From IMG/VR virus record IMGVR_UViG_2563366977_000001, positions 15,651 through 79,650 of that record: a DNA stretch of 64,000 nt. One strand, written 5' to 3'. Under the pieces are notes generated by a model. It searched no databases. It worked only from the letters and a program-made list of their open reading frames with translations, and was not told the DNA's origin. The stretch is from a virus. Lineage: Duplodnaviria; Heunggongvirae; Uroviricota; Caudoviricetes. Below, one piece after another: positions 4,005 through 19,880 of the stretch. Position 1 is the stretch's first letter. Every line of letters begins with the position of its first letter. The translations under genes were made by a program, and so were the position numbers.

Positions 4005-4324
4005 CCCCCCTTCCCTTCCCAAATCTCCCTATTCCTTTGGTTATTCAGTGCGTTTCGTTGGTTGCATTCATCGATAGTGCTGAATAACTGTTCAGCGTAT
4101 GCCGGATACTTGTTTAACAGCACAGGCGTGTCCTCTGGCACTATGCAAGGGGTATAATCAATCAGATTTCCCTGCGGTTTGCTGGTGGCTTCTACGGTAA
4201 TTTGCATTGGCACGCTGATTGATTTCTTTTGCCCGTTCCCGCTGCATCCTGATAACGTCATCAGGCACACGCACATCATTAACCCCGGCATTGCGTAACG
4301 CAGTTTCAAGACGATTGATTTCAT
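4001..4324 (-). CDS. Rz1-like outer-membrane lipoprotein spanin, overlapping Rz in another frame
   Basis: Lipobox LSGC after a hydrophobic signal, Pro-rich mature part; embedded in and extending past the Rz 3' end. Confidence 0.55.
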   Translation of the reverse strand: MKSIVLKLRYAMPGLMMCVCLMTLSGCSGNGQKKSISVPMQITVEATSKPQGNLIDYTPCIVPEDTPVLLNKYPAYAEQLFSTIDECNQRNALNNQRNREIWEGKGG

Positions 4325-4616
4325 TCTGGCTTTCCTCCCGTTGTTTGATCAGGCTGGTATTCAGTTCTGCTGTTTTGCGCTGGTACTCCTTCTCCAGTGT
4401 TTTAATTCTTTCGTTTTCAGCCATCATGGCAGATCGCGATTTTTCACTTAACTGCAATGCGGTAGAAAGCGTGTTGTTCTCGCTTTCAAGTTGTGATTTT
4501 GAGTCTTCCAGGGAACGGATATACCTGATGTGATCGATAACTGCCGCCGTAGTACGGTAAATTCCATAAATGGCTAAAAGCGCAACTACTATCAAAATTA
4601 TCTTTTTCAAAACCAT
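4158..4616 (-). CDS. Rz-like inner-membrane spanin
   Basis: 152 aa; N-terminal TM helix (IILIVVALLAIYGIY) followed by long coiled coil. Confidence 0.6.
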   Translation of the reverse strand: MVLKKIILIVVALLAIYGIYRTTAAVIDHIRYIRSLEDSKSQLESENNTLSTALQLSEKSRSAMMAENERIKTLEKEYQRKTAELNTSLIKQREESQNEINRLETALRNAGVNDVRVPDDVIRMQRERAKEINQRANANYRRSHQQTAGKSD

Positions 4617-4686
4617 CCTCTTCAGATTTTTTGTTGGTGTGATATGTGTACCAATTTGTAACCATTTATGGGCTTAAATGGTGTGT

Positions 4687-5481
4687 TTATGGTTCCTTTT
4701 TAGTGTTGCTTTGGAGCGCATCGATCACACCTTGTGGCATGATCAAACTGATTGCCGGACTCATTACTTCATCGCCCAGTAGAGAACCGGTTAACGTAAT
4801 AGCTACAGCATTCTCCAGTCCCTGTTTGGCTTTTCCGGTAGAGTCCTTAACTTGCTGTACAAGTGTTGAGAGACTACTGCTCGTGTTGTTTATTGCATTT
4901 ATTTGTTCTGTTGCTGCTTCCACAGCGTCTTTTAGTGCTTTGATCTCTTCTTCTGTTAGTGCTGGTTGCTGTGTTGTTCCGGTGGAACTTCCGTTGCCTG
5001 AAGCCTCCCCGCTTGACGCCTGAACTTTTGCATTTATAGCGGTCATGGCTGAAGTGATTGGCACCAGTTCAAATGCTGCCAACGCGTCAATAAGCGATTG
5101 CGGATGCAGGGTATCTCCCATAACTGTTACGAGAGCAAATTCTGGCGCAGGAGATAACTCATTACCTTTGACGTAACATTCCCAGCCAATTTTCATCTGA
5201 AGTAATTCAGTTGGCGAAGTATACGGAGACAGCGAGTCGGCTAAATTGGTTGCTTCTGCACTGACAGTTTTCAGTTGTTCTGAAAAGACAGAAAGCTGAT
5301 TGACCCATGAAACCACCGACGCCGGGTATGCTTTATCCTTCAGGATAAGAGCCTGGATATTCTCTTCCAGAGAACTGGCATTGGATGACGCTGTTTTACT
5401 TAGCGTGATAGATGCAGGCGTAGTTGTGCCTGATGCATTTAGAATTTTGAATGCATTAACTTCAGCGATTGAATCAAGCAT
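4687..5481 (-). CDS. Hypothetical protein (possibly virion-associated)
   Basis: 264-aa ORF abutting PAAR-like gene stop; Ser/Thr/Ala-rich. Confidence 0.35.
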   Translation of the reverse strand: MLDSIAEVNAFKILNASGTTTPASITLSKTASSNASSLEENIQALILKDKAYPASVVSWVNQLSVFSEQLKTVSAEATNLADSLSPYTSPTELLQMKIGWECYVKGNELSPAPEFALVTVMGDTLHPQSLIDALAAFELVPITSAMTAINAKVQASSGEASGNGSSTGTTQQPALTEEEIKALKDAVEAATEQINAINNTSSSLSTLVQQVKDSTGKAKQGLENAVAITLTGSLLGDEVMSPAISLIMPQGVIDALQSNTKKEP

Positions 5482-5765
5482 TATGACACCTGAAAAATTG
5501 CCTCACCATTGGCGATGACTGAGCCACAAGAAAGGGGATCTCCCACACAAACAACTCCTTTCCCGCCTATTGCAAACCATGAGCGTGTCGATACGGCTGA
5601 TCCGGGGTGCGCGCTATTTCCGTCTGTATGGCTGGGGAACGCTCCCCCATCTACAACCACTGGCTTTCCATTTACGGTAAACCAGGAAACTGTTTCTGCT
5701 ACAGGTCGCGGAGGGAATCCTCCATGACCAGAACAAACTGTGTCACTGGTCGCTATTGCACTCAT
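5481..5765 (-). CDS. PAAR-like spike-tip protein
   Basis: 94 aa, Gly/Pro-rich with CSGHGG and repeated G-x-P / NGKPVV motifs resembling PAAR/DUF4150. Confidence 0.4.
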   Translation of the reverse strand: MSAIATSDTVCSGHGGFPPRPVAETVSWFTVNGKPVVVDGGAFPSHTDGNSAHPGSAVSTRSWFAIGGKGVVCVGDPLSCGSVIANGEAIFQVS

Positions 5766-5829
5766 CTAACACCTCCTTTTTCTTAAATCTTCTCCACTTT
5801 GTGATTTTCACTCTTCAGATTTCTTACTT

Positions 5830-6000
5830 CTCATATTTGTCTCTGATTTGTCTCAAACTGGTATCGTGGGCACATCATGTATCATCTAAGTCTCTTTTGT
5901 GTCTCTCTTGCGTCTCTAGTTTGATGCTTTTTACGCTATCTAACTTCTGGTCTTATTTTGTTTTCTCATATAAAATTCAATTCTTTCTCAAATGTGTCTC
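5830..6000. repeat. parC-like centromere: at least 6 GTCTC-containing iterons upstream of parM
   Basis: Repeated TTGTCTC / TGTGTCTC / GCGTCTC in AT-rich leader before ParM start. Confidence 0.45.
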
Positions 6001-6014
6001 AGAAGTGGAGCAAT

Positions 6015-6974
6015 ATGATGCGCATTTTTATCGACGATGGTTCTACCAATATCAAAATGCTGTGGGAACAAGACGGGGAAACTCGAACCCATATCTGTCC
6101 GAACAGTTTTAAACGTGGATGGTCCGCCACATTTGGCGCAGGAAAGCCGTTTAACTACATCATTGATGACGAAAAATATTCATATGACTTGATCTCGCCG
6201 GATGTGCTGCCGACGAATAACGTTGAATGGCAATACAGCCCGCTTAATGTGCTTGCTGTTCATCATGCCCTGCTTACAAGTGGCATTGAGCCTCAAGAAG
6301 TGGAAATAGTTGTCACGTTGCCACTGGCAGAGTTTTATGACGACGACGCACAATACAACATGAAAAATATTGAGCGGAAAAAGGCCAGCCTGATGCGACC
6401 AGTCACCCTTAACAAAGGTCAGGTTTTTACTATCAAAAAAGTGACTGTGCGCCCGGAGTCAATACCCGCAGGGATCGGTCTGTGCGACAGCCTTGTGCCA
6501 GCGCATTCTGTGCTTATTGTTGATCTTGGTGGGACTACTCTGGATGTGTCGATGGTCGCCGGGCAAATGACCGCCGTTTCTCGCGTATTTGGCGATTCTA
6601 ATCTCGGCGTTTCGCTGGTAACTAAAGAGGTCAGACAGGCACTTGCAAAAGCGAATACCGAAACCTCTAATTATAATGTCGATCAATTAATCATTAATCG
6701 TGATGATGAGGATTATTTGACCGACAATATTAACGATCCGTCTGCTATTGATGATGTTAAGAAAGCCATTTCGTCAAGCATAGAACGACTCCGTACACGC
6801 GTACTGGATGTGATCAGTGATTTCAAAGGATACACGCATGTTATGGTCATTGGTGGCGGCGCGCCGCTTGTTGCTGATGCTATCCGTGAGCAGGTAAACA
6901 TTCGTGACGATAGGTTTTTCGTTGCTGATGATCCACAACTTGCTCTTGTCTATGGTCTAAAATCTATCGGTTGA
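6015..6974 (+). CDS. parM: ParM/StbA actin-like plasmid segregation ATPase
   Basis: ORF trimmed to ATG 6015 with GTGGAG RBS; N-terminal IDDGSTNIK motif and DLGGTTLD phosphate-2 motif. Confidence 0.8.
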   Translation: MMRIFIDDGSTNIKMLWEQDGETRTHICPNSFKRGWSATFGAGKPFNYIIDDEKYSYDLISPDVLPTNNVEWQYSPLNVLAVHHALLTSGIEPQEVEIVVTLPLAEFYDDDAQYNMKNIERKKASLMRPVTLNKGQVFTIKKVTVRPESIPAGIGLCDSLVPAHSVLIVDLGGTTLDVSMVAGQMTAVSRVFGDSNLGVSLVTKEVRQALAKANTETSNYNVDQLIINRDDEDYLTDNINDPSAIDDVKKAISSSIERLRTRVLDVISDFKGYTHVMVIGGGAPLVADAIREQVNIRDDRFFVADDPQLALVYGLKSIG

Positions 6975-11231: not shown

Positions 11232-11909
11232 CTATCCCTTCACAAAGGAGAAATTGCTCGCTGTTGCTTTTAGCGCGCCACCAGCTTTCAGGGCTATATC
11301 ACCATCAGCGGCGACGGTTACATTGCTGCCTTTTACATTAACGTCTCCATCAGAGGATACATTGGTTTTGCTGCTTGATTTGACGTTAACCTCACCTCCA
11401 GCATTAAGCACTATATTCGCCGGGCCGATTATGTAAATCTGGCCGGATTCGTTCATCCCTATCCTTGATCCTGCGGCGGTGTTTGCTATTTCATAGCCAC
11501 CGCCAGCCGTTCTTACCTCAAGGATATTGTTTCGGTGAATAACAAAATCTTCAGTCGCCGAAAACTGGGGGCGGGCAGGAGCACCATCAACTTCTTCTGG
11601 CGACCATCCACTTCCTTGTCCGGAGGCTTCCGGAGGCACATTTGGTACGCCTCCTGGGGCATCCTGCGCCGCGCCAACGATTAAAGGTCGGCGCGTGTCT
11701 ATCCTGCCTTTAGCATCCAGATAAGGAAATTCGACCCAGACTAAATCGCCGCTGACTGTAGGTGTAAAGGCGTTACCGATAGGCATTTGATACTCTGCCC
11801 ATGGGAGGTCTTCATCCGGTACACCGTTCCAGTCAGGCAGTATGCGGACCTGCGCTCGCATAAGTCCGGCAGGGTGTTTGGTCCCTACGATTTGCGCTCT
11901 GCGTTTCAC
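11232..11909 (-). CDS. Baseplate central spike protein (gpV-like)
   Basis: N-terminal OB-fold-like pattern (RILPDW...PxGDxVWVEF) and C-terminal repeated NVKxS / VxVxGD beta-helix-like repeats. Confidence 0.45.
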   Translation of the reverse strand: MKRRAQIVGTKHPAGLMRAQVRILPDWNGVPDEDLPWAEYQMPIGNAFTPTVSGDLVWVEFPYLDAKGRIDTRRPLIVGAAQDAPGGVPNVPPEASGQGSGWSPEEVDGAPARPQFSATEDFVIHRNNILEVRTAGGGYEIANTAAGSRIGMNESGQIYIIGPANIVLNAGGEVNVKSSSKTNVSSDGDVNVKGSNVTVAADGDIALKAGGALKATASNFSFVKG

Positions 11910-12886
11910 TGGTTGGGTACTCCTAATATCATTCGTGTTGTATAGCCGATCCGGTCTTCAAAATGGGCTACGTTTTTCACCAGCAGCTTACGAGGCAACG
12001 ATTCGTCCAGCTTATTTTCCTGGTCGTAACGATACACGAGGATCTCAATAACCATTCCCGGCGTGATGTCGGGATTACCCGCGACCTCAATATCCATTTT
12101 GGGTACGAGCGACAATTGCATATTGCGCAGAGTTTCCATATCCGGATCGGATATATAGCGTATTGGAAGTGAGCTATCGCCATATTCGACATAGCCTTCA
12201 GTCATTGAATAGCCGGTAAATCGATACTGAGTATTTGCCGTAACGGCATACTCTTGCTGTATAAGCCTCATTTTTGAAATCGTGTATTCCGCCCTGGGGT
12301 TGTTCCCTTCATAGGTGAATGATGGTTTGGCTTTCATAAGGTCAGCTAATGTATAAAAGTTAAACTGACCACGGCAGGCCCAGCATAAAGCGCCTTTGTC
12401 GCGGGCCATTTCAGATAGCATTTTGGAGGGTTTTTCCCCGGCGGAAAGATGGTACGTACAGCTTCGTTTCAATGCGCTGGAGGCGATTTTCAGTGTACCG
12501 GTATACGTCTTGAAGATGGTATCAGGCGTTTTATTTGTATGCAGGTTAGCCCGTAGAGCGGGGATCTTAAATATCCGAACGTCTTCACTGACTGCAATGA
12601 CCGTAATGACATCACCAGCCAGCACCGCAGATGTTACGAAAAAAGTTGTTTTAAACGTACCTGAATTGCCTTGTGGATCACCCATCTCTGCAACCAGTGC
12701 TGCGCCGTATTTTGTTTTCCAGTCATCAATTATGGTGCCGGTAATGTCGTGAATTTCCAGTTTCAGCAATGGTGCACGCAGGTTTGCCTTTTCCACATAT
12801 ACGGCAGTGAATATCCACTCCCTGGGCACTTTGTTTCCGTTGATGGTAATGGACTGTAGAAAGTATTGCTGTAGCTCCTGGGACAT
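11906..12886 (-). CDS. Putative baseplate/tail protein
   Basis: 326-aa ORF translationally coupled upstream of spike gene. Confidence 0.3.
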   Translation of the reverse strand: MSQELQQYFLQSITINGNKVPREWIFTAVYVEKANLRAPLLKLEIHDITGTIIDDWKTKYGAALVAEMGDPQGNSGTFKTTFFVTSAVLAGDVITVIAVSEDVRIFKIPALRANLHTNKTPDTIFKTYTGTLKIASSALKRSCTYHLSAGEKPSKMLSEMARDKGALCWACRGQFNFYTLADLMKAKPSFTYEGNNPRAEYTISKMRLIQQEYAVTANTQYRFTGYSMTEGYVEYGDSSLPIRYISDPDMETLRNMQLSLVPKMDIEVAGNPDITPGMVIEILVYRYDQENKLDESLPRKLLVKNVAHFEDRIGYTTRMILGVPNQ

Positions 12887-12889
12887 GGC

Positions 12890-13657
12890 TTACCCCATTC
12901 TCAGAGAGGTTTCAGTAATAATTCGTTTCGCGTCCAGCTCCCAGGCGGTGATCACGTCTGCTATAACACTAATTGCCGTTTGTGCAGCATAAATACGCTC
13001 TTCCCCAATTGGGGCTGAAACATCAGTAAAACTGATGTCTTTAGCATCCTGAATCGCGCAGATTAGCGGGACGGGTACTCGTACCAGCGGGGTTGTTGCT
13101 TCAAACTGCGTTCCTGCCATCAAGCGAAGACGTGCTCCTAGCGAATTACACATCAGACTCATGGTCGCCTTATCCGTCGCCATTAACGTAACGTCATACG
13201 TCAGATTTGCCTGGGTGTATTCCAGGGCTACTAAAGGCATACCGCTGCCAGGTTCGCAGAAGTGATCACAGCTTTTGCGGTCTATCTGCTGGTCATTGTT
13301 GATATAGCTGATATCCATTGAGCGCGAGATATTAATCAGAGGGAGCGCATCGCGATTAATGTTCGGATTCTCTGGCTTTCTCCCTTGCCCGGCATTAGCA
13401 CGGCGAACCGCTTTAAGGAACTCGACCGCGTTATCAAAACGGGCAACATAAACACGCTCCGCTGGTGGGCGACTCAGGAATGATGCAAAGCGCCTTTCTT
13501 CTTTTGCTGGTTCCACCAGCGTTACGTCAGAAAAAATGTCGCTGATTAGCGTAGCAAAAGCGTTATCCACTCTTTCCAGACCAGTTGTCTGGAATTTTCC
13601 GGTACGCGTTGTCTGCCACTCGCCAATGCGGGACAGGAGAGTTTTGTTGGGTGTCAT
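12890..13657 (-). CDS. Putative tail/baseplate protein
   Basis: 255-aa ORF in same minus-strand cluster. Confidence 0.3.
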   Translation of the reverse strand: MTPNKTLLSRIGEWQTTRTGKFQTTGLERVDNAFATLISDIFSDVTLVEPAKEERRFASFLSRPPAERVYVARFDNAVEFLKAVRRANAGQGRKPENPNINRDALPLINISRSMDISYINNDQQIDRKSCDHFCEPGSGMPLVALEYTQANLTYDVTLMATDKATMSLMCNSLGARLRLMAGTQFEATTPLVRVPVPLICAIQDAKDISFTDVSAPIGEERIYAAQTAISVIADVITAWELDAKRIITETSLRMG

Positions 13658-14457
13658 TCGATCACTCCGTTTTGAGTGGTATCAAAGTTCCTGGCCGGGA
13701 TGCAGTAATACAGGGAGCCGACGTGTTGTGTTCCGTAGCTGAAGATTCGATGCACGTACCACCAGCGGCGGGCGAGGCCATTCGCCATTTCTTCGTTCCA
13801 TTCCAGGATTGAACCAACAGGTACGTTGTTTGCAGCAATACGCAGGATTAGCACTTCATCAGCAAGACCATCCTGTTCTCCATCGGCATCAATGGCATGA
13901 AACGAATCCCTTCCGTCCGGGTTATCCAGGACGTATACGATTTCCGGTTCCAGATAGGTAAGCTCACGCTGGTTGTTGTCCAGTTGCGTGAAAGACTCTT
14001 CACCTGTTTCATCGTTTACGACGCCATAGGTGCCATCAGCCGGGCGGTATAAAAGCGCCTCGAACGCGTCAGGGCTTGATTCAATAATGAGCATCCAATC
14101 GGCGCGGATCTGGTCGTTGAACGCTTTATGTCCGTTATATCGGGTTTTAAGCTGCTGGTTTGGTTCTCTGTTAGCGAGCGATGCCGGTAGGGGAGCGATG
14201 TCAGGTTCAATCACTTCCGTAACAGAGTCACCAGCATTATCAGGCCAATTATCATGGCTATTAGATTGGGTGGCGGCGTGCTCTTCCAGAATACTGAATG
14301 GCCCTGCACTGACATTCCCATTTTCCGTTGTGCTTCCTTCATTCGCTTCAACCGTCGTTGTCTCTTCTCTCTGCGTGCTGTCATGTTCTGTTCCCTTTCT
14401 CATCAGGCTTGCATCATCAGCAAGCCATTCATCAAAACGGCCCATAAGCGTCCTCAA
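13654..14457 (-). CDS. Hypothetical acidic protein, first gene of minus-strand cluster
   Basis: 267-aa ORF overlapping next gene by 4 nt. Confidence 0.3.
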   Translation of the reverse strand: MRTLMGRFDEWLADDASLMRKGTEHDSTQREETTTVEANEGSTTENGNVSAGPFSILEEHAATQSNSHDNWPDNAGDSVTEVIEPDIAPLPASLANREPNQQLKTRYNGHKAFNDQIRADWMLIIESSPDAFEALLYRPADGTYGVVNDETGEESFTQLDNNQRELTYLEPEIVYVLDNPDGRDSFHAIDADGEQDGLADEVLILRIAANNVPVGSILEWNEEMANGLARRWWYVHRIFSYGTQHVGSLYYCIPARNFDTTQNGVIE

Positions 14458-14608
14458 AGGTCGATTTATCAGGTATCGAAAGGAAGATTTTCGGGAGATT
14501 GTGATTTTGGATGGAGGAGGGGAATTGTTGCAATATGCACTTGCGCACGGTGCAACGGTGCGCTATCATTATGACATTCATTAATAATCATGGAGGATAA
14601 GATGATCG

Positions 14609-14911
14609 ATGAGCAAAAAGATTAACATAAAGAATTTCAGGGATGAGTGGCTTGATGATTTTTTTGAATTTTCAATACCACACAAAAAGATACCTTCTGA
14701 TATTCAGATTACATTGTTGCGGAAGCTGGATATTATCAATGCTGCAACTACTTGGAAGGACTTGAGATCACCACCAGGTAATCGGTATGAGGAATTGTCA
14801 GGGAAGCTAAACGGCTATTCATCAATAAGGGTGAATAAGCAATACAGGTTAATTTTTAAGTGGGTTAACGGAAAGGCCGAGGACTTGTATCTCGACCCTC
14901 ACAAATACTAA
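14609..14911 (+). CDS. higB: HigB-family toxin (plasmid maintenance killer protein)
   Basis: 100 aa; toxin-first arrangement with HTH antitoxin directly downstream. Confidence 0.7.
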   Translation: MSKKINIKNFRDEWLDDFFEFSIPHKKIPSDIQITLLRKLDIINAATTWKDLRSPPGNRYEELSGKLNGYSSIRVNKQYRLIFKWVNGKAEDLYLDPHKY

Positions 14912-14982
14912 AACAAATACCCGGCGGATGGGCCGGGTACTGACCAGAGTCCACTTAATACGCACGCTAGTAAGGGCAAAAA

Positions 14983-15321
14983 ATGAAACAGGCAACCAGA
15001 AAACCGACGACTGTAGGTGATATCCTGCTGTACGAATACCTGGAGCCGTTAGAGCTTAAGATCAACGAGTTAGCAGAAATACTTCATGTTCATCGTAACA
15101 CCGTAAGTGCTCTTGTTAATAATAATCGTAAGCTAACGATGGATATGGCATATCGCCTGGCAAAAGCATTCGATACTTCTGTAGATTTTTGGATTAATCT
15201 TCAGACCGCAGTAGACCTGTGGGAAGTCGAAAATGATATGCGCGTTCAGGAAGAGTTAAGTCGTATCAATACTGCTGAAAAATTTATTTCTCAGCGGAAC
15301 CTGAATAAAAAAGCAGCCTGA
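14983..15321 (+). CDS. higA: HigA-family antitoxin (XRE-type HTH)
   Basis: 112 aa with HTH (ELAEILHVHRNTVSALVNN) and HigA-like C-terminus. Confidence 0.7.
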   Translation: MKQATRKPTTVGDILLYEYLEPLELKINELAEILHVHRNTVSALVNNNRKLTMDMAYRLAKAFDTSVDFWINLQTAVDLWEVENDMRVQEELSRINTAEKFISQRNLNKKAA

Positions 15322-15340
15322 TATAGTAAAACACATACAA

Positions 15341-15366
15341 AAAGCCCACTTAACAAGTGGGCTTTC
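15341..15366 (+). terminator. Hairpin terminator after higA
   Basis: AAGCCCACT-TAACA-AGTGGGCTT stem-loop followed by T-rich tract. Confidence 0.5.
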
Positions 15367-15377
15367 CTTTGGAATTA

Positions 15378-15738
15378 ATGAACATTAAACCTATCCGTAC
15401 AGAACAAGATTATGAGGCCGCACTGCGTGAAGTCGAACCGATGTTCGATAACGAACCGGAAATGAATACCCCGGAAGGTGATTTCTTTGAGGTCATGTGT
15501 CTTCTCATTGAGGAGTACGAGAAAAAACATTATTCCAATTGAGCCACCATCACCTATTGAAGCCATTAAGTTCCGTATGGAACAGCAAGGGCTGACCGTG
15601 AAGGATCTGGAACCGGCTATTGGTAAATCAAATCGTGTTTACGAGGTGCTAAATGGGACACGAAATTTGACGTTACCTATGATTCGCCGTTTACATTCCC
15701 AGTTTGGCATTCCTCTTGAAAGCCTAGTTGGTGTTTAA
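15378..15738 (+). pseudogene. Second HigA-like HTH antitoxin gene split by a 1-nt frameshift in an A6 tract
   Basis: ORFs 15357..15542 and 15478..15738 together resemble one HTH antitoxin; they differ by +1 frame at GAGAAAAAACATT (about 15521-15533). Confidence 0.45.
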
Positions 15739-15799
15739 GTTTGGCGGTCTGGATGACCGCTTTTACCAAAAGTAAAGTTAAGAAGGTTTGATTGTTTAT

Positions 15800-16537
15800 A
15801 TGAGCAAAGATTCATCATTAGAAAATAAAGATGAAAATATCACTGTCAAGAATACAATCGAAGAAGCCATTAGAGACAAGTTATTTAATAAGTTGTTTGC
15901 ATATGTTGTGGTTTCTTTTTTTGTCGTTAACTGGCAGGATATTTTCATTTTATTTAAATCAAAGTACGATATATATACGACATTATCTATAGTATGGGTA
16001 GGTGATGAGTATAATATCCCCTTTTTGCCATCATTCATTTTGCCACCATTTGTAGCTCATTTTGTCATGCCATTTATATATGGCACTGTTGCGTCTGTTA
16101 TTATACCTTATGTTACGTTGTTTATATCGAAAGCCACAGGTAGAAATTATGCAAGGATACGATATCTTGATTATGAATTTGATTTGAAAGAGAAAGCCAA
16201 AATAGAAGATTTAATGTTTGATCTGCGTAGCAAAGAAAGCGCCAGATTAGATTTGGATGCAGCAATAGAGGAGAGAATAAAATCATTAAGTGCAATCGAC
16301 TCTAAGAACAAAGAGCTTCTGGACGACAGAGTTGCTTTGTTCGAAGGCATAAAAGCGATAGTGGATGTATATACAGAAAAAAATAAAAGAATCTCCTCGC
16401 CTGAAGATTTTGTTGATTTATTAAAGGCTGTGGAAAGAACTGATTTTTATAAGGATATTGGTTTGTCTGGCATAAATGATTTAATAGCTGATTTAAAGAA
16501 TACTTACGAAGACATACTTAAACCCATGTCCGACTAA
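15800..16537 (+). CDS. AT-rich two-TM membrane protein with cytoplasmic coiled-coil domain (defence/exclusion candidate)
   Basis: Two hydrophobic helices then charged helical C-terminal half; very low GC relative to flanks; own terminator. Confidence 0.5.
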   Translation: MSKDSSLENKDENITVKNTIEEAIRDKLFNKLFAYVVVSFFVVNWQDIFILFKSKYDIYTTLSIVWVGDEYNIPFLPSFILPPFVAHFVMPFIYGTVASVIIPYVTLFISKATGRNYARIRYLDYEFDLKEKAKIEDLMFDLRSKESARLDLDAAIEERIKSLSAIDSKNKELLDDRVALFEGIKAIVDVYTEKNKRISSPEDFVDLLKAVERTDFYKDIGLSGINDLIADLKNTYEDILKPMSD

Positions 16538-16545
16538 CGCTTAAA

Positions 16546-16563
16546 AGGCGGATTTTCCGCCTT
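16546..16563 (+). terminator. Hairpin terminator (GGCGGATTTTCCGCC)
   Basis: Stem-loop immediately after stop of the membrane protein gene. Confidence 0.5.
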
Positions 16564-16630
16564 GCTTTGATGACTTTGATGTAAAACATTTTTTCAGCTA
16601 TTTGAACACCATGATGGTGTTATTCGTGAT

Positions 16631-17110
16631 TTGTCATTTCTTGATGCTCATCAGGCTGTGTTTGTTCAGCAACAAGAAGGAAAGCAACCGATAGAGTATC
16701 GCTTTTGGGTTACGTACTCTTTTCACTGCTTCACAAAAGACTATGCACACCAGACTGAGGAAGAGAAACTGGCGTTAATGTACCACGCCCCTAAAGAGTC
16801 TCGTCCATTTTGTGAGCGTCGCTATAATCTTGCCAAACTTCACTTAAAAGAGGCAATTCTGTCATTGTCGGAAGGTAAGGTGATCCATGCCGGATACGGA
16901 AGCTATGCCGTTATTGAGGTAAATATTGGGGAGGGTAACAAGGAGTATTATTTTGTTGCGTTTAAGGCTTTCAGGGAAAAGAAAAAGTTGCGGTTACACA
17001 TCACTAGCGCCTACCCGGTATCAGAAAAACCAAATGGCAGGTCAGTGAAGTTTTTCGCAATCGCATACAATCTGTTAAGGAACAAACCGCTTCCTAAGCC
17101 ACCAAAATAA
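16631..17110 (+). CDS. Hypothetical protein, independent cargo unit
   Basis: 159-aa ORF followed by hairpin AAAGCCCACCTTAAGGTGGGCTT at about 17111-17133. Confidence 0.4.
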   Translation: MSFLDAHQAVFVQQQEGKQPIEYRFWVTYSFHCFTKDYAHQTEEEKLALMYHAPKESRPFCERRYNLAKLHLKEAILSLSEGKVIHAGYGSYAVIEVNIGEGNKEYYFVAFKAFREKKKLRLHITSAYPVSEKPNGRSVKFFAIAYNLLRNKPLPKPPK

Positions 17111-17335
17111 CAAAGCCCACCTTAAGGTGGGCTTCGCCAGAAATTATTTTCTGGTATTCAGAACGCCATTACCGGACTTTGCCTTGACCAAGTATCACAA
17201 CAGGCTTGACCTGTTATGATAGCTGGTTGCGGGATGTCTGAATTTCTTCAGTCTGCTGCATCCTCGAAGGTTTGGTTCAACATGTACCATTCCTTCACCG
17301 TCATAATAGTGAACTATTCACGTCCTTACAAACAC

Positions 17336-18541
17336 TTATACATTTTTTACGTTGTTCTTCACATACGCCATGAACATCTTTTCGGCTTGTGCTGGTGGTG
17401 TTCCTGCCATAACAAGCGCGTCAATGAACGCCTGCTTCTTCAGTGCGAACTGGTCAGCAAGACGTTGCTGAAGTTCCTTGTTTTTCTGCTTCTCCCGTTG
17501 CAAAGCAGCTTCTTTTGCCGCTGCCCGTTTTTTCTGTGCGTCGGATAACTTTCTGGCCCTCGTCAGTTGGTCGCGCAGCTTGTCGATCTTACCGTTGTCC
17601 TTTGCCAGTTTTGAGCTTAAAGCGGCCTGGCGTTTCTGATAGAGCTTCCATTCACGTTTAGCTGCCTCAACATTCGTTTTGCTGCTACGGTTTCGATTGA
17701 ACGCCTTCTCGTCTTCTTTTGTGAAGTGTTTTGTCGTGCGGCGGCGATCGTCACCAAAGGCAACTTGCGTTGCAGCTTTTTGCAGGGCGCGAGCAATACT
17801 CATCTGCCAACTGGCAGACTGTAGTCGTGTCATTGAGTGGATCACATGTTTACAGGCGACGCCTTGCAGCTTAGGGTTGCGAACTTTTGGATAGGCGTAT
17901 TCTTTTGGCGGGGCCAGGGCAAAGTTACCCGCAGTGGCGATGTAGCGATACCAGTATTGATGGCGACCGCAGTCACAATCGAAAGACACTCGCCCGGCAC
18001 ACAGTGATTTTGTGACTTTCAGGGCTGATTTATCGTCTTCTGCGATGTCATCGACCATCTGATCCCATTCTTCAAAACGTACCCGGACAATGTGGTGCTG
18101 GTGAACGGATATATCGGACGCTTCCACGCGGATATTAATCACATTGTGACGAAGAGATACGGGCGTAGCTCTTTTGATACCAGAACCGTCGTCTACGGCG
18201 TTATTTGCTCGCTTAATATCGATAGCCTGGCTGGACGCTACCAGTTGTGCGTATGTAATGCCAGCCGTCTTGCTGTCGTATTTTTCGCGTGCTTTGCTTC
18301 GCAGCTTTTCGAAGCCTTTCAGATCGTCACGCGTAAAGAACGTGCCGCCTTTCTTTTTCCCCAGCTTAAGAATGTCTTCGGCTGATTTATTCCTAAGCCT
18401 GCCCGGCGTGAGTGTCCTGTGCGCCTGGCGGCGTTTGCGGTTTTGCTCTTTCCTGATGAGTTCAAATACGCGTGTGAAATCCTTAGAGGACAGGCCGTCA
18501 GTGATATATCGCCCGTCCTGATTTTTCAGGAAGTCAGGCAT
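17336..18541 (-). CDS. SWIM zinc-finger protein with lysine/arginine-rich coiled-coil tail
   Basis: C-x-C-x(n)-C-x-H pattern (FDCDCGRHQYW ... CKHVIH); C-terminal K/R/Q/A-rich helical region. Confidence 0.5.
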   Translation of the reverse strand: MPDFLKNQDGRYITDGLSSKDFTRVFELIRKEQNRKRRQAHRTLTPGRLRNKSAEDILKLGKKKGGTFFTRDDLKGFEKLRSKAREKYDSKTAGITYAQLVASSQAIDIKRANNAVDDGSGIKRATPVSLRHNVINIRVEASDISVHQHHIVRVRFEEWDQMVDDIAEDDKSALKVTKSLCAGRVSFDCDCGRHQYWYRYIATAGNFALAPPKEYAYPKVRNPKLQGVACKHVIHSMTRLQSASWQMSIARALQKAATQVAFGDDRRRTTKHFTKEDEKAFNRNRSSKTNVEAAKREWKLYQKRQAALSSKLAKDNGKIDKLRDQLTRARKLSDAQKKRAAAKEAALQREKQKNKELQQRLADQFALKKQAFIDALVMAGTPPAQAEKMFMAYVKNNVKNV

Positions 18542-18863
18542 TTTCTATCTCCGGTGCCGAGCCAGCGTAATCGCGAATCTTGTTTCTTAGCCATGCTGCG
18601 TCAGGAAGAGTTAACGTTGTCCCTACCGGCATTTCTTCCATTTCTGACTCATGGCCCACCAGCACGCGAAATACCCAGCGCAAATCAGCGTTGCCATAGG
18701 CGCGATAGGCCGCCAGGTCTGAGCGATAAACCTCATCAATTTTTATCGTGTACTGGAAATTATCGGAGTGATACTCCGATACCCGCTTGATCATCTCCTG
18801 ATGGAATAGTGCGCGCAGCACATCGTCTTCAATGCATCGATCGTCGAGCCTGCTGTAACTCAT
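18534..18863 (-). CDS. Hypothetical protein co-transcribed with SWIM protein
   Basis: 109-aa ORF overlapping SWIM gene start by 8 nt. Confidence 0.4.
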   Translation of the reverse strand: MSYSRLDDRCIEDDVLRALFHQEMIKRVSEYHSDNFQYTIKIDEVYRSDLAAYRAYGNADLRWVFRVLVGHESEMEEMPVGTTLTLPDAAWLRNKIRDYAGSAPEIENA

Positions 18864-18955
18864 AACAGTTCCTCACAGTCATAACCTGGGGGGAACTGTA
18901 TGCAGGGTGTGAAATGCGAGAAAGCAGCGTCACCTTGCCTGGTGACGCTGTGAAA

Positions 18956-19237
18956 TTATGCGTGTGAAAATAATGGACGGATGTTTGGGCGAGCGGTTTG
19001 CGAAGCAACCCAAAGCTCATACTGGGATTGCATACCGGTCCACATTTCGGCACTGGTTCCAAGAGCGGACTCCAGACGAAGTGCCATATCAGCGGAAATA
19101 CCTGTTTTTTCGTTCAAAATTCGGGAAAGTGCCGTGCGAGTAATGCCTAATGCAGCAGCGGTGTCTGTGACTGATATGTCTCCCAAATATTCACGAAGAA
19201 CCGCGCCTGGATGCGCGGGATTATGCATACGACTCAT
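18956..19237 (-). CDS. HigA-family HTH antitoxin-like protein (third gene of a TA operon)
   Basis: 93 aa; [21 protein letters not shown]; start overlaps upstream antitoxin stop (ATGA). Confidence 0.6.
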
Positions 19238-19533
19238 ATGTGGAAAGCAACCCGTTTACCGGTTGGCAATTCAACGTCCAGACTCAACTTCCCACCCATA
19301 GCCTCAACGTAACGTTTAAGCGTTGCCACTTTCAAGTCATTGCCTCGTTGTTCAAGTTTTGTGATGGCTGGTTGACTAATTCCCATCGCATCGGCAACTG
19401 TTTTTTGTGATAACTGAAGCTCCTCTCTCAACATCTGCAATCCGACTTCCAGAATCATTTCATCAGCCTGCTCTTTGATACGAGCTTGGCTTTCAGGGGA
19501 TTGCGCAGCAATAACTTCTCTTAGAGTTCTCAT
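19234..19533 (-). CDS. XRE-family HTH antitoxin
   Basis: 99 aa; [24 protein letters not shown]; overlaps toxin stop. Confidence 0.65.
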
Positions 19534-19880
19534 TATTTTTTCTCAAGTTCTGCAAGATGGTTGGAAAATTCGTCGTCTGCAATCCGTATCATTCTTTCGT
19601 AGAACTTTTTATCGTTACTTTTATCTCCGGCGCACAGGATTATGGCTTGCCTTACCGGATCAAATGCGAAGAATGCTCTGATAGGGCGACCAGCGTACTG
19701 AATCCGTAACTCCTTCATGTTTTTATGGCGTGAGCCTTTAACTGTGTCGGCATATGGCCTTGATAATGAAGGGCCATATGTTTCCAGATTGATCAGGTCA
19801 ACCAGGATTTTTTCTTTTAATGCAGGTTCCTGTTCCTGGAACCATTCATCAAAAATTTTTCCAAAATAAATTTGCCACAT
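19533..19880 (-). CDS. RelE/ParE-superfamily toxin (phage Gp49-like / HigB-like)
   Basis: 115 aa; conserved KELRIQYAGRPIRAFFAF...IILCAGDK pattern typical of Gp49-like toxins. Confidence 0.7.
   Translation of the reverse strand: MWQIYFGKIFDEWFQEQEPALKEKILVDLINLETYGPSLSRPYADTVKGSRHKNMKELRIQYAGRPIRAFFAFDPVRQAIILCAGDKSNDKKFYERMIRIADDEFSNHLAELEKK

Follow-up and report, generated by a model that had tools for sequence, protein, structure and literature searches.

Gene 25 of bacteriophage P1 was reportedly defined by Walker and Walker in 1983 through amber mutants that are specifically defective in their tails, which are unstable. In the annotation of the P1 record, it is the second gene of an operon of the order 26-25-7-24-6-5 with the Lpa-dependent late promoter LP26 in front, and the phenotype is described as baseplate for gene 26 and as 'tail stability' for genes 25, 7 and 24. 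Structural roles are known for gp7 as stopper, gp24 as tail terminator, gp6 as hub and gp5 as spike (PMC12810830), and gp26 was modelled as plug or wedge protein in two P1 baseplate structures (PDB 9ay5 and 9vzk; PMC12810830 and a baseplate preprint), where six copies of the protein tie the wedges to the central hub. According to the preprint, contraction is proposed to be triggered when gp26 and PmgA detach from this hub. Missing from the protein lists of both published virion and baseplate reconstructions (PMC12810830; baseplate preprint), one of which claims nearly all head-to-tail proteins, is gp25.

The DNA investigated here, a stretch of 64,000 nucleotides of the virus record IMGVR_UViG_2563366977_000001 that we refer to as the window, belongs to a D6-like phage-plasmid of the P1 family. 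Its minus strand encodes a protein of 109 residues (18534..18863) followed by one of 401 residues (17336..18541), both starting with ATG. From sequence comparison it is virtually certain that this pair represents copies of P1 genes 26 and 25, both late genes of the tail, an identity that was already known, since D6, the closest sequenced phage, annotates both genes in this way. The 401-residue protein is 56% identical to P1 gp25 over 359 residues (E 3e-137 in BLASTP), 96.7% identical to the product of orf74 of phage D6 (tblastn and BLASTP) and matches PHROG 1722 ('tail protein', E 5e-196, residues 2-399), which identifies its gene as orthologue of the 'tail stability' gene 25. It equals P1 gp25 and D6 orf74 in length, with which it also shares the position after gene 26, a CxC...CKH core and a helical tail, although the C-terminal helix diverges from P1 gp25 beyond about residue 335. 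The 109-residue protein aligns with P1 gp26 across 96 residues at 43% identity (E 2e-24 in BLASTP), finds the PDB chain 9ay5_S/9vzk 'Gp26' with an E-value of 2.4e-18 in phmmer, matches PHROG 1269 ('baseplate wedge subunit', E 1e-35) and corresponds to D6 orf75, which is labelled 'similar to P1 gene 26', thus defining its gene as the orthologue of gene 26, which codes for a baseplate plug/wedge protein resembling gp53 of T4. As in P1, the gene belongs to PHROG 1269 and heads the cluster, whereas its product is 16 residues shorter, with the alignment beginning at residue 17 of P1 gp26. The preliminary description of this DNA could not place the pair in the P1 gene set and had declared its proposal void should a characterised morphogenesis gene of P1 without accessory role turn out to be clearly homologous. 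The orthology to gp25 and gp26 provides precisely this homology and assigns the pair to the first two positions of the 26-25-7-24-6-5 series.

In comparison to D6, a nucleotide identity of 88% contrasts with the protein identity of 96.7% found for the 401-residue protein, which implies that the differences are mostly synonymous. Judged by their sequence, both reading frames are real genes. The start codon of gene 25 is located within the end of gene 26, resulting in the described overlap of 8 nt (ATGCCTGA on the coding strand, 18534..18541, minus strand), where P1 contains a 9-nt gap. From this overlap we infer translational coupling of the two genes, and the overlap combined with their conserved adjacency suggests that they are co-transcribed. 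A putative ribosome-binding site of the sequence GAGGA (18870..18874, minus strand) precedes the ATG of gene 26 by 6 nt. Further upstream, a perfect 10-bp inverted repeat with a 6-nt loop (CAGCGTCACC / GGTGACGCTG, 18925..18950, minus strand) separates gene 26 from an HTH gene; this element, in whose 3' arm the homology to D6 starts, could act as leaky terminator or RNA stabiliser. On the other side, a strong terminator-like hairpin of 14 pairs with a T run (17108..17139), located 197 nt downstream of gene 25 at the end of a convergent yjaZ-like gene, probably terminates the 26-25 transcript.

Both proteins differ strongly in their electrostatic properties, with a computed net charge of +38 and a pI of 10.1 for the 401 residues of gp25 compared to a net charge of -7 and a pI of 4.9 for the acidic 109-residue gp26. 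For gp25, AlphaFold2 predicts a globular domain (residues 1-292, 17666..18541; this and all following regions of gp25 on the minus strand) consisting of N-terminal helices, a three-stranded sheet and a SWIM-like core, with a mean pLDDT of 88.8 and a pTM of 0.89. It is followed by a single 88-residue helix (residues 291-378, 17408..17671) that would extend over about 13 nm if straight, and by a C-terminal helix (residues 383-400, 17342..17395) carrying the motif F-x-D-A-L..G....A, which is conserved among P1/D6-type relatives. Between residues 293 and 378, Lys or Arg occupy 24 out of 86 positions and, in one heptad register, 62-67% of the a and d positions are hydrophobic or Ala. This region, which was initially noticed as K/R/Q/A-rich coiled-coil tail, thus probably forms a coiled-coil arm. 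The putative zinc-finger core is contained within residues 185-240 (17822..17989). Out of only four cysteines (181, 189, 191, 230), three take part in the signature C189-D-C191 ... C230-K-H232 (CxC at 17969-17977, CKH at 17846-17854), which, with 38 residues in between, conforms to the CxCx(n)CxH pattern of SWIM domains. A structure search with the model identified the SWIM domain of ZSWIM8 as best fold match, the solved SWIM zinc fingers (Pfam PF04434) nearest to the core being those of ZSWIM8 (9rwz) and Shu2 (6dex). In ZSWIM8, this domain is described as zinc-binding 'central organizer' within a protein-protein superdomain (PMC13083262). Among the best seven viral matches by structure, two are likewise named SWIM-type domain proteins; the 'SWIM-type domain-containing proteins' of Achromobacter phage Motura and Burkholderia phage BcepSauron in BFVD resemble the sheet-plus-SWIM part of gp25 (Foldseek E 7e-3 and 4e-2), but they contain only 139-223 residues and do not share much of the architecture of the 401-residue protein.

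At the level of sequence, the relationship to SWIM domains is more distant. Window gp25 has no match to Pfam SWIM at E<=1 and does not reach the gathering threshold of 19.6 bits, its CxC-CxH spacer far exceeding the span of the 38-position model. Among 31 relatives, SWIM was nevertheless the only family matched repeatedly, in eight cases with scores below threshold (7.7-12.7 bits, best E 0.02) that map onto the motif region. Pfam and NCBIfam scans of gp25 and gp26 gave nothing usable otherwise, no HTH or other regulator domain was found in Pfam scans of gp25 and its relatives, and PDB sequence searches with either gp25 or its family profile returned chance or low-complexity matches only and no relative. 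Taken together, gp25 apparently harbours a conserved SWIM-like zinc-finger core that has so far been unannotated.

The conservation of this core was analysed in 134 full-length representatives of clusters at 50% identity. Throughout this diverged set, C189, C191, C230, K231 and H232 are invariant and the same holds for E214, P218, N222 and G227, whereas the spacer between CxC and CxH measures 36-38 residues in 132 proteins and conservation peaks at residues 181-240. A CxC...CxH string alone might occur by chance, but its presence in 134 out of 134 relatives argues against this, and the signature pointed out at the outset stands as the most conserved part of the protein. The family, which comprises at least 601 clusters at 50% identity, maintains a mean net charge of +31.8 +/- 7.7 and an invariant Arg- and aromatic-rich stretch G-R-H-Q-Y-W-Y-R-Y, and no informative domain fusions were found in its longest members. 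In one deposited phage genome, a gp25 homologue is labelled as MvaT-like nucleoid protein, which most likely reflects only its K/A-rich tail.

Gene context was compared in 104 loci; the 103 related loci that were fetched were all found via a gene 25 homologue. A gp26-like gene is located directly upstream of gene 25 in 100 of these 104 loci, even where genes 7-24-6-5 sit elsewhere, with an overlap of 8 nt in 54 related loci and of 1 nt in 14. Relatives of 32% identity on contigs of 84-94 kb display the gene order of P1. In distant relatives the pair is located beside portal and terminase genes instead of baseplate genes, adjoining the portal gene in 17 distant loci, and in Xanthomonas phage Rb1 it is found just after a gene resembling the Sit tape measure. 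At every locus examined, gene 25 is part of a late morphogenetic cluster. In distant phages, gp25 is followed by a gene of about 170 codons (PHROG 4597), which was considered as diverged gp7 stopper and rejected, based on an hhalign probability of 3.4% and no link in jackhmmer; no PDB relative of this protein was found. Among 5,426 complete E. coli genomes, genes 25 and 26 are present in 101, always on plasmids.

Mass spectrometry of purified P1 virions detected only two peptides of gp25 (8.4% coverage), a protein that received no assignment from HHpred and for which the authors allowed a role as assembly co-factor. The same study, which used a two-peptide threshold, also found two peptides of the six-copy stopper gp7, and did not detect gp26, PmgA and several six-copy baseplate proteins. 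Knock-down of gene 25 by CRISPRi lowered plating only about 10-fold. We tentatively propose, at slightly less than an even chance, that gp25 is a zinc-organised tail-completion factor working with gp26. In such a mechanism, C189, C191, C230 and H232 would hold zinc in a SWIM-type finger with a fixed insert of 36-38 residues, and the ion would organise the globular domain of the very basic protein, from which a coiled-coil arm of roughly 13 nm would follow. Translational coupling would lead to its production in step with gp26. As a transient or sub-stoichiometric factor, gp25 might use its SWIM-centred domain as protein-docking platform, as found for ZSWIM8 and Shu2, to load or lock gp26 and the wedge-hub junction into a metastable extended state. 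In its absence tails would assemble yet fire or disintegrate, thus appearing as 'unstable tails', and the protein itself would stay outside the ordered, symmetric virion. Bacteriophage T4 has the hub assembly factors gp51, gp26 and gp28, and in SPP1 a minor protein of basic character, gp7, binds to both portal and DNA. These proteins may serve as analogues of gp25 with respect to their assistance in assembly, their location in a late structural cluster and their absence or scarcity in the ordered virion, a likeness that is one of function.

The invariant zinc ligands, their coincidence with the conservation peak and the repeated SWIM matches are all consistent with the proposed tail-completion mechanism, as are the nearly constant gp26-like neighbour with its mostly 8- or 1-nt overlap, the opposite charges of the two proteins, the lack of a PDB relative of gp25, its absence from both reconstructions with just two peptides in the virion, and the contraction trigger ascribed to the detachment of gp26 and PmgA in the preprint. 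However, adjacency and coupling constitute a circumstantial link between gp25 and gp26, and the phenotypes of gene 26 (baseplate) and gene 25 (tail stability) differ, indicating that gp25 is not simply needed for gp26 function. Further reservations arise from the Pfam SWIM score, from zinc binding being a prediction, from the weak effect of CRISPRi and from the neighbourhood of the pair in distant relatives, which is portal and terminase and not baseplate. A conserved charge above +30 also suits the binding of nucleic acids better than a pure protein chaperone, and a peptide count equal to that of gp7 would be compatible with a genuine virion protein of low copy number. We thus consider it possible, although rather doubtful, that gp25 is a low-copy, flexible or asymmetric constituent of the tube lumen, the neck or the DNA end, whose basic surface and zinc finger would bind the packaged DNA or else the acidic inside of the tube. 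Without it, the loaded tail or the joining of head and tail would be destabilised, and symmetrised cryo-EM maps would not show the protein, just as Sit, the tape measure, and UpfB, the tripod protein, are unresolved in the P1 maps together with the fibres (PMC12810830). Such a location is supported by the detection of gp25 with a count that passes the two-peptide threshold when gp26, PmgA and several baseplate proteins escaped altogether, by the family-wide charge and the invariant Arg/aromatic stretch, by the fact that gp7 and gp24, which carry the same 'tail stability' label, are now known as neck proteins, and by the portal neighbour in 17 distant loci and the Sit-like neighbour in phage Rb1. 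Conversely, two peptides may reflect carry-over of an abundant late protein, the authors themselves allowed for an assembly co-factor, the solved SWIM domains matched by the model serve protein-protein assembly and not DNA binding, and no unassigned density is reported for the P1 maps (PMC12810830). The same basicity kept across the family, in combination with the zinc-finger core, would also befit a histone-like nucleic-acid-binding regulator of late tail gene expression or mRNA stability, with an indirect tail phenotype. The MvaT-like annotation and the modulatory character of a weak CRISPRi phenotype could be quoted in its favour, but we regard this role as improbable in light of the location of gene 25 within late morphogenetic clusters, the specific tail defect of the amber mutants, the lack of a detected regulator domain and the likely origin of the MvaT label in the composition of the tail.

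Even further removed from the evidence, and in our view highly improbable, is a role of the pair as accessory operon outside the P1 gene set, serving lysogeny, exclusion or defence from within a cargo island. In its favour are toxin-antitoxin and other low-GC cargo on both flanks of the pair and the lack of annotation in Pfam and NCBIfam. The remainder of the ancestral operon, genes 7 (stopper), 24 (tail terminator), 6 (hub) and 5 (spike), is found at 11232..14457 on the minus strand, as identified by PHROGs 1906, 1767, 1390 and 430 and by jackhmmer. Unlike in P1, gene 7 does not directly follow gene 25, from which it is separated by 2,878 bp that contain the terminator-like hairpin and cargo on the opposite strand (14609..17110, plus strand, GC 0.38), which includes a HigB-like toxin, an HTH antitoxin, a frameshifted HTH regulator, a 249-residue protein and the yjaZ-like gene. 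With low-GC cargo located also upstream of gene 26, the core pair comes to resemble part of an island. The initial placement inside an accessory island was correct for the flanks and not for the pair itself, whose GC content of 0.486-0.499 is that of the core genome compared to 0.38 in the adjacent cargo, and which all 103 related loci found via gene 25 contain, whereas the length of the inserts beside it ranges from 0 to 2,878 bp. Out of 82 loci, 49 have a gap of no more than 3 nt between genes 25 and 7, and in the remaining 33, D6 and every close relative of the window among them, this gap amounts to 294-2,878 bp. Besides this synteny, the accessory reading is rejected by the clear homology to P1 genes 25 and 26, by the identity of gp26 as modelled baseplate protein and by the PADLOC defence models, where gp25 obtained two insignificant matches (E about 0.007, with no single stretch passing) and gp26 none. 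A pattern of a 9-bp box, 3-5 nt and TANNNT, which is crude in deriving its consensus from P1 LP26 and LPpmgL only, identified no LP26-type promoter in the window. It is the insertion of cargo between genes 25 and 7 that has turned 26-25 into a separate two-gene unit. In the lineage to which D6 and the window belong, cargo has two insertion hotspots, the 25|7 junction and the DNA ahead of gene 26, which split the ancestral late operon, and annotators should be prepared to find core tail genes stranded amid toxin-antitoxin modules.

As known tail genes of P1 and D6, genes 26 and 25 are themselves ordinary, and what is of some value concerns the features of gp25 and the explanation of the apparent island. 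With considerable reservation, we suggest that the gp25 family might constitute an unrecognised class of zinc-dependent, SWIM-centred and highly basic morphogenetic proteins of P1-like myophages, acting either as catalyst of the wedge-hub lock or as hidden component of the virion bound to DNA or the lumen. Either outcome, if true, would explain the one classical tail gene of the 26-25-7-24-6-5 operon of P1 that was left unassigned by two recent virion structures. Concrete point mutants and candidate partners of gp25 are suggested by its invariant Cys and His residues, by its SWIM-like fold and its conserved, extremely positive charge, and by a coupling to gp26 that is nearly universal.

By homology, the two overlapping ORFs on the minus strand of the window are the gene pair 26-25 of the phages P1 and D6, the latter being the closest sequenced relative, and thus an already known pair rather than an accessory operon. 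The ORF listing recovers both reading frames exactly as initially delineated, namely gene 25 encoding 401 residues (17336..18541) and gene 26 encoding 109 residues (18534..18863), each with an ATG start, and with gene 25 starting inside the end of gene 26 in an overlap of 8 nt (coding-strand junction ...gaaaATGcctGActtc). The larger protein is assigned to PHROG 1722 'tail protein' (E 5e-196) and the smaller one to PHROG 1269 'baseplate wedge subunit' (E 1e-35). A tblastn search of 50,697 phage records found the larger protein in 23 of them. The D6 counterpart is annotated as 'similar to P1 gene 25; orf74', and homologues with 56–58% identity in P1, P7, SJ46, RCS47 and other P1-like phages carry the feature '25: gp25, tail stability'. 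Pairwise BLASTP against P1 gp25 yields 56% identity over 359 residues (E 3e-137), and P1 gp26 is 43% identical to the smaller protein, which is also matched by the chain designated 'Gp26' in the solved P1 structures 9ay5 and 9vzk (E 2.4e-18). In the P1 record, the late promoter LP26 is followed by genes 26, 25, 7, 24, 6 and 5. In light of this homology, the D6 annotation and the P1 gene order, the preliminary description was wrong to state that it could not assign the pair to the P1 gene set, and the clear homology to a characterised P1 morphogenesis gene, which it had itself named as evidence against its reading, was found. Compared to D6, the DNA is 88% and the larger protein 96.7% identical, which points to purifying selection on both ORFs. 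As a whole, the window belongs to the P1 phage-plasmid family and resembles D6: a 20-kb stretch aligns over 74–84% with plasmids of about 90 kb from E. coli, E. marmotae and Salmonella, and the 26-25 pair is present in 101 of 5,426 complete E. coli genomes, plasmid-borne in every case.

The larger protein contains four cysteines, three of which, together with H232, form the C-x-C...C-x-H signature recognized at the outset (C189-D-C191...C230-K-H232). A Pfam scan of this protein returned nothing even at E ≤ 1, it does not reach the curated threshold for membership in PF04434, and neither Pfam nor NCBIfam annotates a SWIM domain in it. Searching 1.84 billion representative proteins with a profile yielded a family of 601 members at E ≤ 1e-3. 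We aligned 134 full-length sequences, each representing a cluster at 50% identity and many sharing only 23–30% identity with the query. Residues C189, C191, E214, P218, N222, G227, C230, K231 and H232 are invariant in this alignment; conservation peaks at residues 181–240 and the spacer between both halves of the motif measures 36–38 residues in 132 sequences. SWIM is the sole Pfam family matched repeatedly, in 8 of 31 diverse members (best E 0.02), with other families each found in at most three. These sub-threshold matches fall on the motif, as illustrated by the family member P0268, whose residues 187–238 correspond to profile positions 11–34 of 38 with a score of 12.7 bits (threshold 19.6). 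Structure comparison with predicted viral models gave two proteins labelled 'SWIM-type domain-containing protein' within the top seven matches. From the invariant motif, the sub-threshold matches and the structural matches, we conclude that the conserved Cys/His core of gp25 has a SWIM-like fold and constitutes a divergent SWIM-type finger with a fixed and conserved insert of 36–38 residues, whose zinc binding is putative. The closest structural precedent for the use of such a module is ZSWIM8, where the SWIM domain serves as zinc-binding 'central organizer' of a protein-protein superdomain (PMC13083262). Within the literature accessible to our search, no paper linking gp25 to a SWIM domain was found.

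In the full-length model of gp25 (pLDDT 85), a compact domain (residues 1–290) is followed by a single helix of 88 residues (291–378) and a short terminal helix. The long helix displays one heptad register with 62–67% hydrophobic residues or alanine at a/d positions and is, as modelled, compatible with a coiled coil, while the C-terminal quarter is enriched in K, R, Q and A, in line with the coiled-coil tail of this composition that had been proposed. The protein is strongly basic (net charge +38, pI 10.1), as is the family (mean +31.8, sd 7.7, minimum +9 in 134 members), and gp26 is acidic (pI 4.9). The ten longest family members scanned carry no extra Pfam domains, and defence-system models match neither gp25 nor gp26. 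The homologue from Xanthomonas phage Rb1 (5758-6879) was deposited as 'transcriptional regulator MvaT', a description repeated in a 2026 paper and probably erroneous, prompted by the K/A-rich tail.

To characterize the gene context, we surveyed the window and 103 related loci by local jackhmmer searches. At 100 of the 104 loci, the gp25-like gene is directly preceded by a gp26-like gene, and both genes overlap by 8 nt in 54 cases and by 1 nt in 14. Of the four exceptions, one gene is located at the end of a contig, one in a remnant on a chromosome, one in a D6-like locus and one in phage Rb1, where the gp25-like gene is preceded by a gene for a tape measure resembling P1 Sit and a gene on the opposite strand. 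The full order 26-25-7-24-6-5 is kept in relatives of 32% identity on contigs of 84–94 kb. In 17 loci of greater divergence, a conserved protein of about 170 residues (PHROG 4597, no function assigned) is encoded after the pair; a link between this protein and the gp7 stopper was sought and none established. Two of these loci were scanned further: next comes a portal gene (PHROG 1497) in locus L095 and, in Acinetobacter phage ABMM1 (region 4299-6247), a 592-residue PHROG 1014 protein with no function assigned, the ABMM1 pair thereby lying between the latter and a terminase gene. The adjacency in 100 loci with differing downstream genes defines the 26-25 pair as a deeply conserved unit, coupling gp25 to gp26, with variable genes following. 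We also observed that gp7 of the D6 type is about 90–100 residues longer than the 165–174-residue forms of distant relatives (loci L002 and L086 compared), the extra segment likely being an acid-rich low-complexity stretch near the N terminus (residues ~20–100). In the window, the likelier start of gene 7 is the ATG at 14445 (MGRFDEW, RBS GAGGA) and not the TTG at 14457 of the ORF listing.

The surroundings of the pair differ from those in P1. Downstream of gene 25, all on the opposite strand, lie from low to high coordinate genes for a HigB-like toxin (14609-14911), an HTH antitoxin (14983-15321), an HTH regulator corresponding to D6 orf72 (15357-15738), a 249-residue protein with no function assigned and a yjaZ-like protein of 159 residues (16631-17110), at whose end a strong hairpin terminator (17108-17139) also faces gene 25. 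Beyond this cargo, the minus strand resumes with genes 7 (13654-14457), 24 (12890-13657), 6 (11906-12886) and 5 (11232-11909). The regulator gene is split into ORFs of 61 and 86 residues by a break around 15533, where 1 nt is inserted relative to D6 (CATTATTCCAAT vs CATTA-CCCAAT), and is probably a frameshifted pseudogene or the result of a sequencing error. The yjaZ-like gene, of low GC and missing from D6, matches the NCBIfam model of the E. coli stationary-phase protein YjaZ (E 4e-87, 290.7 bits, cutoff 324). On its upstream side, gene 26 is flanked by an orphan HigA-like HTH gene, a Gp49-like toxin/HTH pair and then a mat homologue. Within this segment (18956-19880, minus strand), the Gp49-like (DUF891) toxin gene overlaps its HTH antitoxin gene, and its product weakly matches the PADLOC model NsnC (E 4e-8); in D6, other small ORFs occupy the interval from mat to gene 26. 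Located 5 nt past the HTH gene stop and 62 nt before gene 26 is a GC-rich inverted repeat (18925-18950) with perfectly matching 10-bp arms and a loop of 6 nt; owing to the weak T run after it we do not call it a terminator, and since D6 homology begins within its 3' arm it marks the insertion boundary.

Among 82 loci holding both gene 25 and gene 7, the latter follows within 3 nt in 49, as in P1, and after 294–2,878 bp in 33, including D6 and all close relatives of the window, whose gap is the largest (2,878 bp; 14458-17335). One locus with a gp25 100% identical to that of the window has only 904 bp between both genes. This variation identifies the 25|7 junction as a cargo hotspot in the lineage including D6, and the 26-25 pair as part of the core genome left isolated between insertions. 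The proposed location inside an accessory island consequently holds for the flanks, which are low-GC cargo (0.38 at 15–17 kb and 0.43 at 19–20 kb), but not for the pair itself, which is of P1 orthology and at 0.486–0.499 resembles the rest of the phage; that the pair would itself be accessory cargo is extremely improbable.

The split bears on transcription, as genes 7-24-6-5 of such elements must, we infer, have their own promoter, and the transcript of 26-25 would probably comprise just these two genes and end at the hairpin at 17108-17139. In a CRISPRi screen of P1, guides against 26 and 25 lowered plating only about 10-fold (EOP about 0.1) and both genes were scored non-essential, whereas plating dropped more than 10^5-fold for the downstream genes 7 and 5 (PMC10695390). 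Yet both 25 and 26 are defined by amber mutants, and the essential genes 7, 24, 6 and 5 are located downstream. Such contrast is what one would expect from transcription of 7-5 that is not wholly dependent on read-through from 26, and it may indicate a promoter inside the operon ahead of gene 7, fitting the split operon in the window.

In P1, gp26 is a baseplate protein that was modelled in two independent cryo-EM studies (bioRxiv 10.1101/2025.07.21.665459; PMC12810830), as a T4 gp53-like subunit of which six copies per baseplate fix the wedge triplexes at the hub (bioRxiv 10.1101/2025.07.21.665459) and as a six-fold 'plug' (PMC12810830), with gp7, gp24, gp6 and gp5 assigned as stopper, tail terminator, hub and spike (PMC12810830). 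Conversely, gp25 is missing from the protein lists of both reconstructions (bioRxiv 10.1101/2025.07.21.665459; PMC12810830), one of which claims the identification of almost all proteins from head to tail (PMC12810830), and is thus absent from the ordered virion models; a search of solved structures with gp25 found no relative. Gonzales et al. detected it in virions by only two peptides (8.4% coverage), with no HHpred assignment, and considered both a structural role and one as assembly co-factor (PMC9024508). Its 'tail stability' label goes back to classical amber mutants. We tentatively favour, at somewhat less than an even chance, that gp25 is a docking protein organised by zinc, whose synthesis is coordinated with that of gp26. 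Acting transiently or in sub-stoichiometric amounts, gp25 would set or lock the junction between wedges and hub, such that tails lacking it would assemble but contract or fall apart. Such locking would fit the proposal that contraction is triggered by detachment of gp26 and the baseplate protein PmgA from the hub (bioRxiv 10.1101/2025.07.21.665459). A less probable, though serious, alternative places gp25 as a genuine low-copy and flexible virion component in the tube lumen, the neck or on the DNA end, where it would bind DNA or the acidic tube interior. This would be in line with a peptide count equal to that of the six-copy gp7, with its extreme charge, with the neck location of gp7 and gp24, which share its phenotype label, and with the portal-proximal position of the pair in distant phages. 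A role of gp25 as regulator appears unlikely, well behind both. While the gene pair itself is known, the residual interest lies in gp25, which lacks a functional assignment even after two virion structures.
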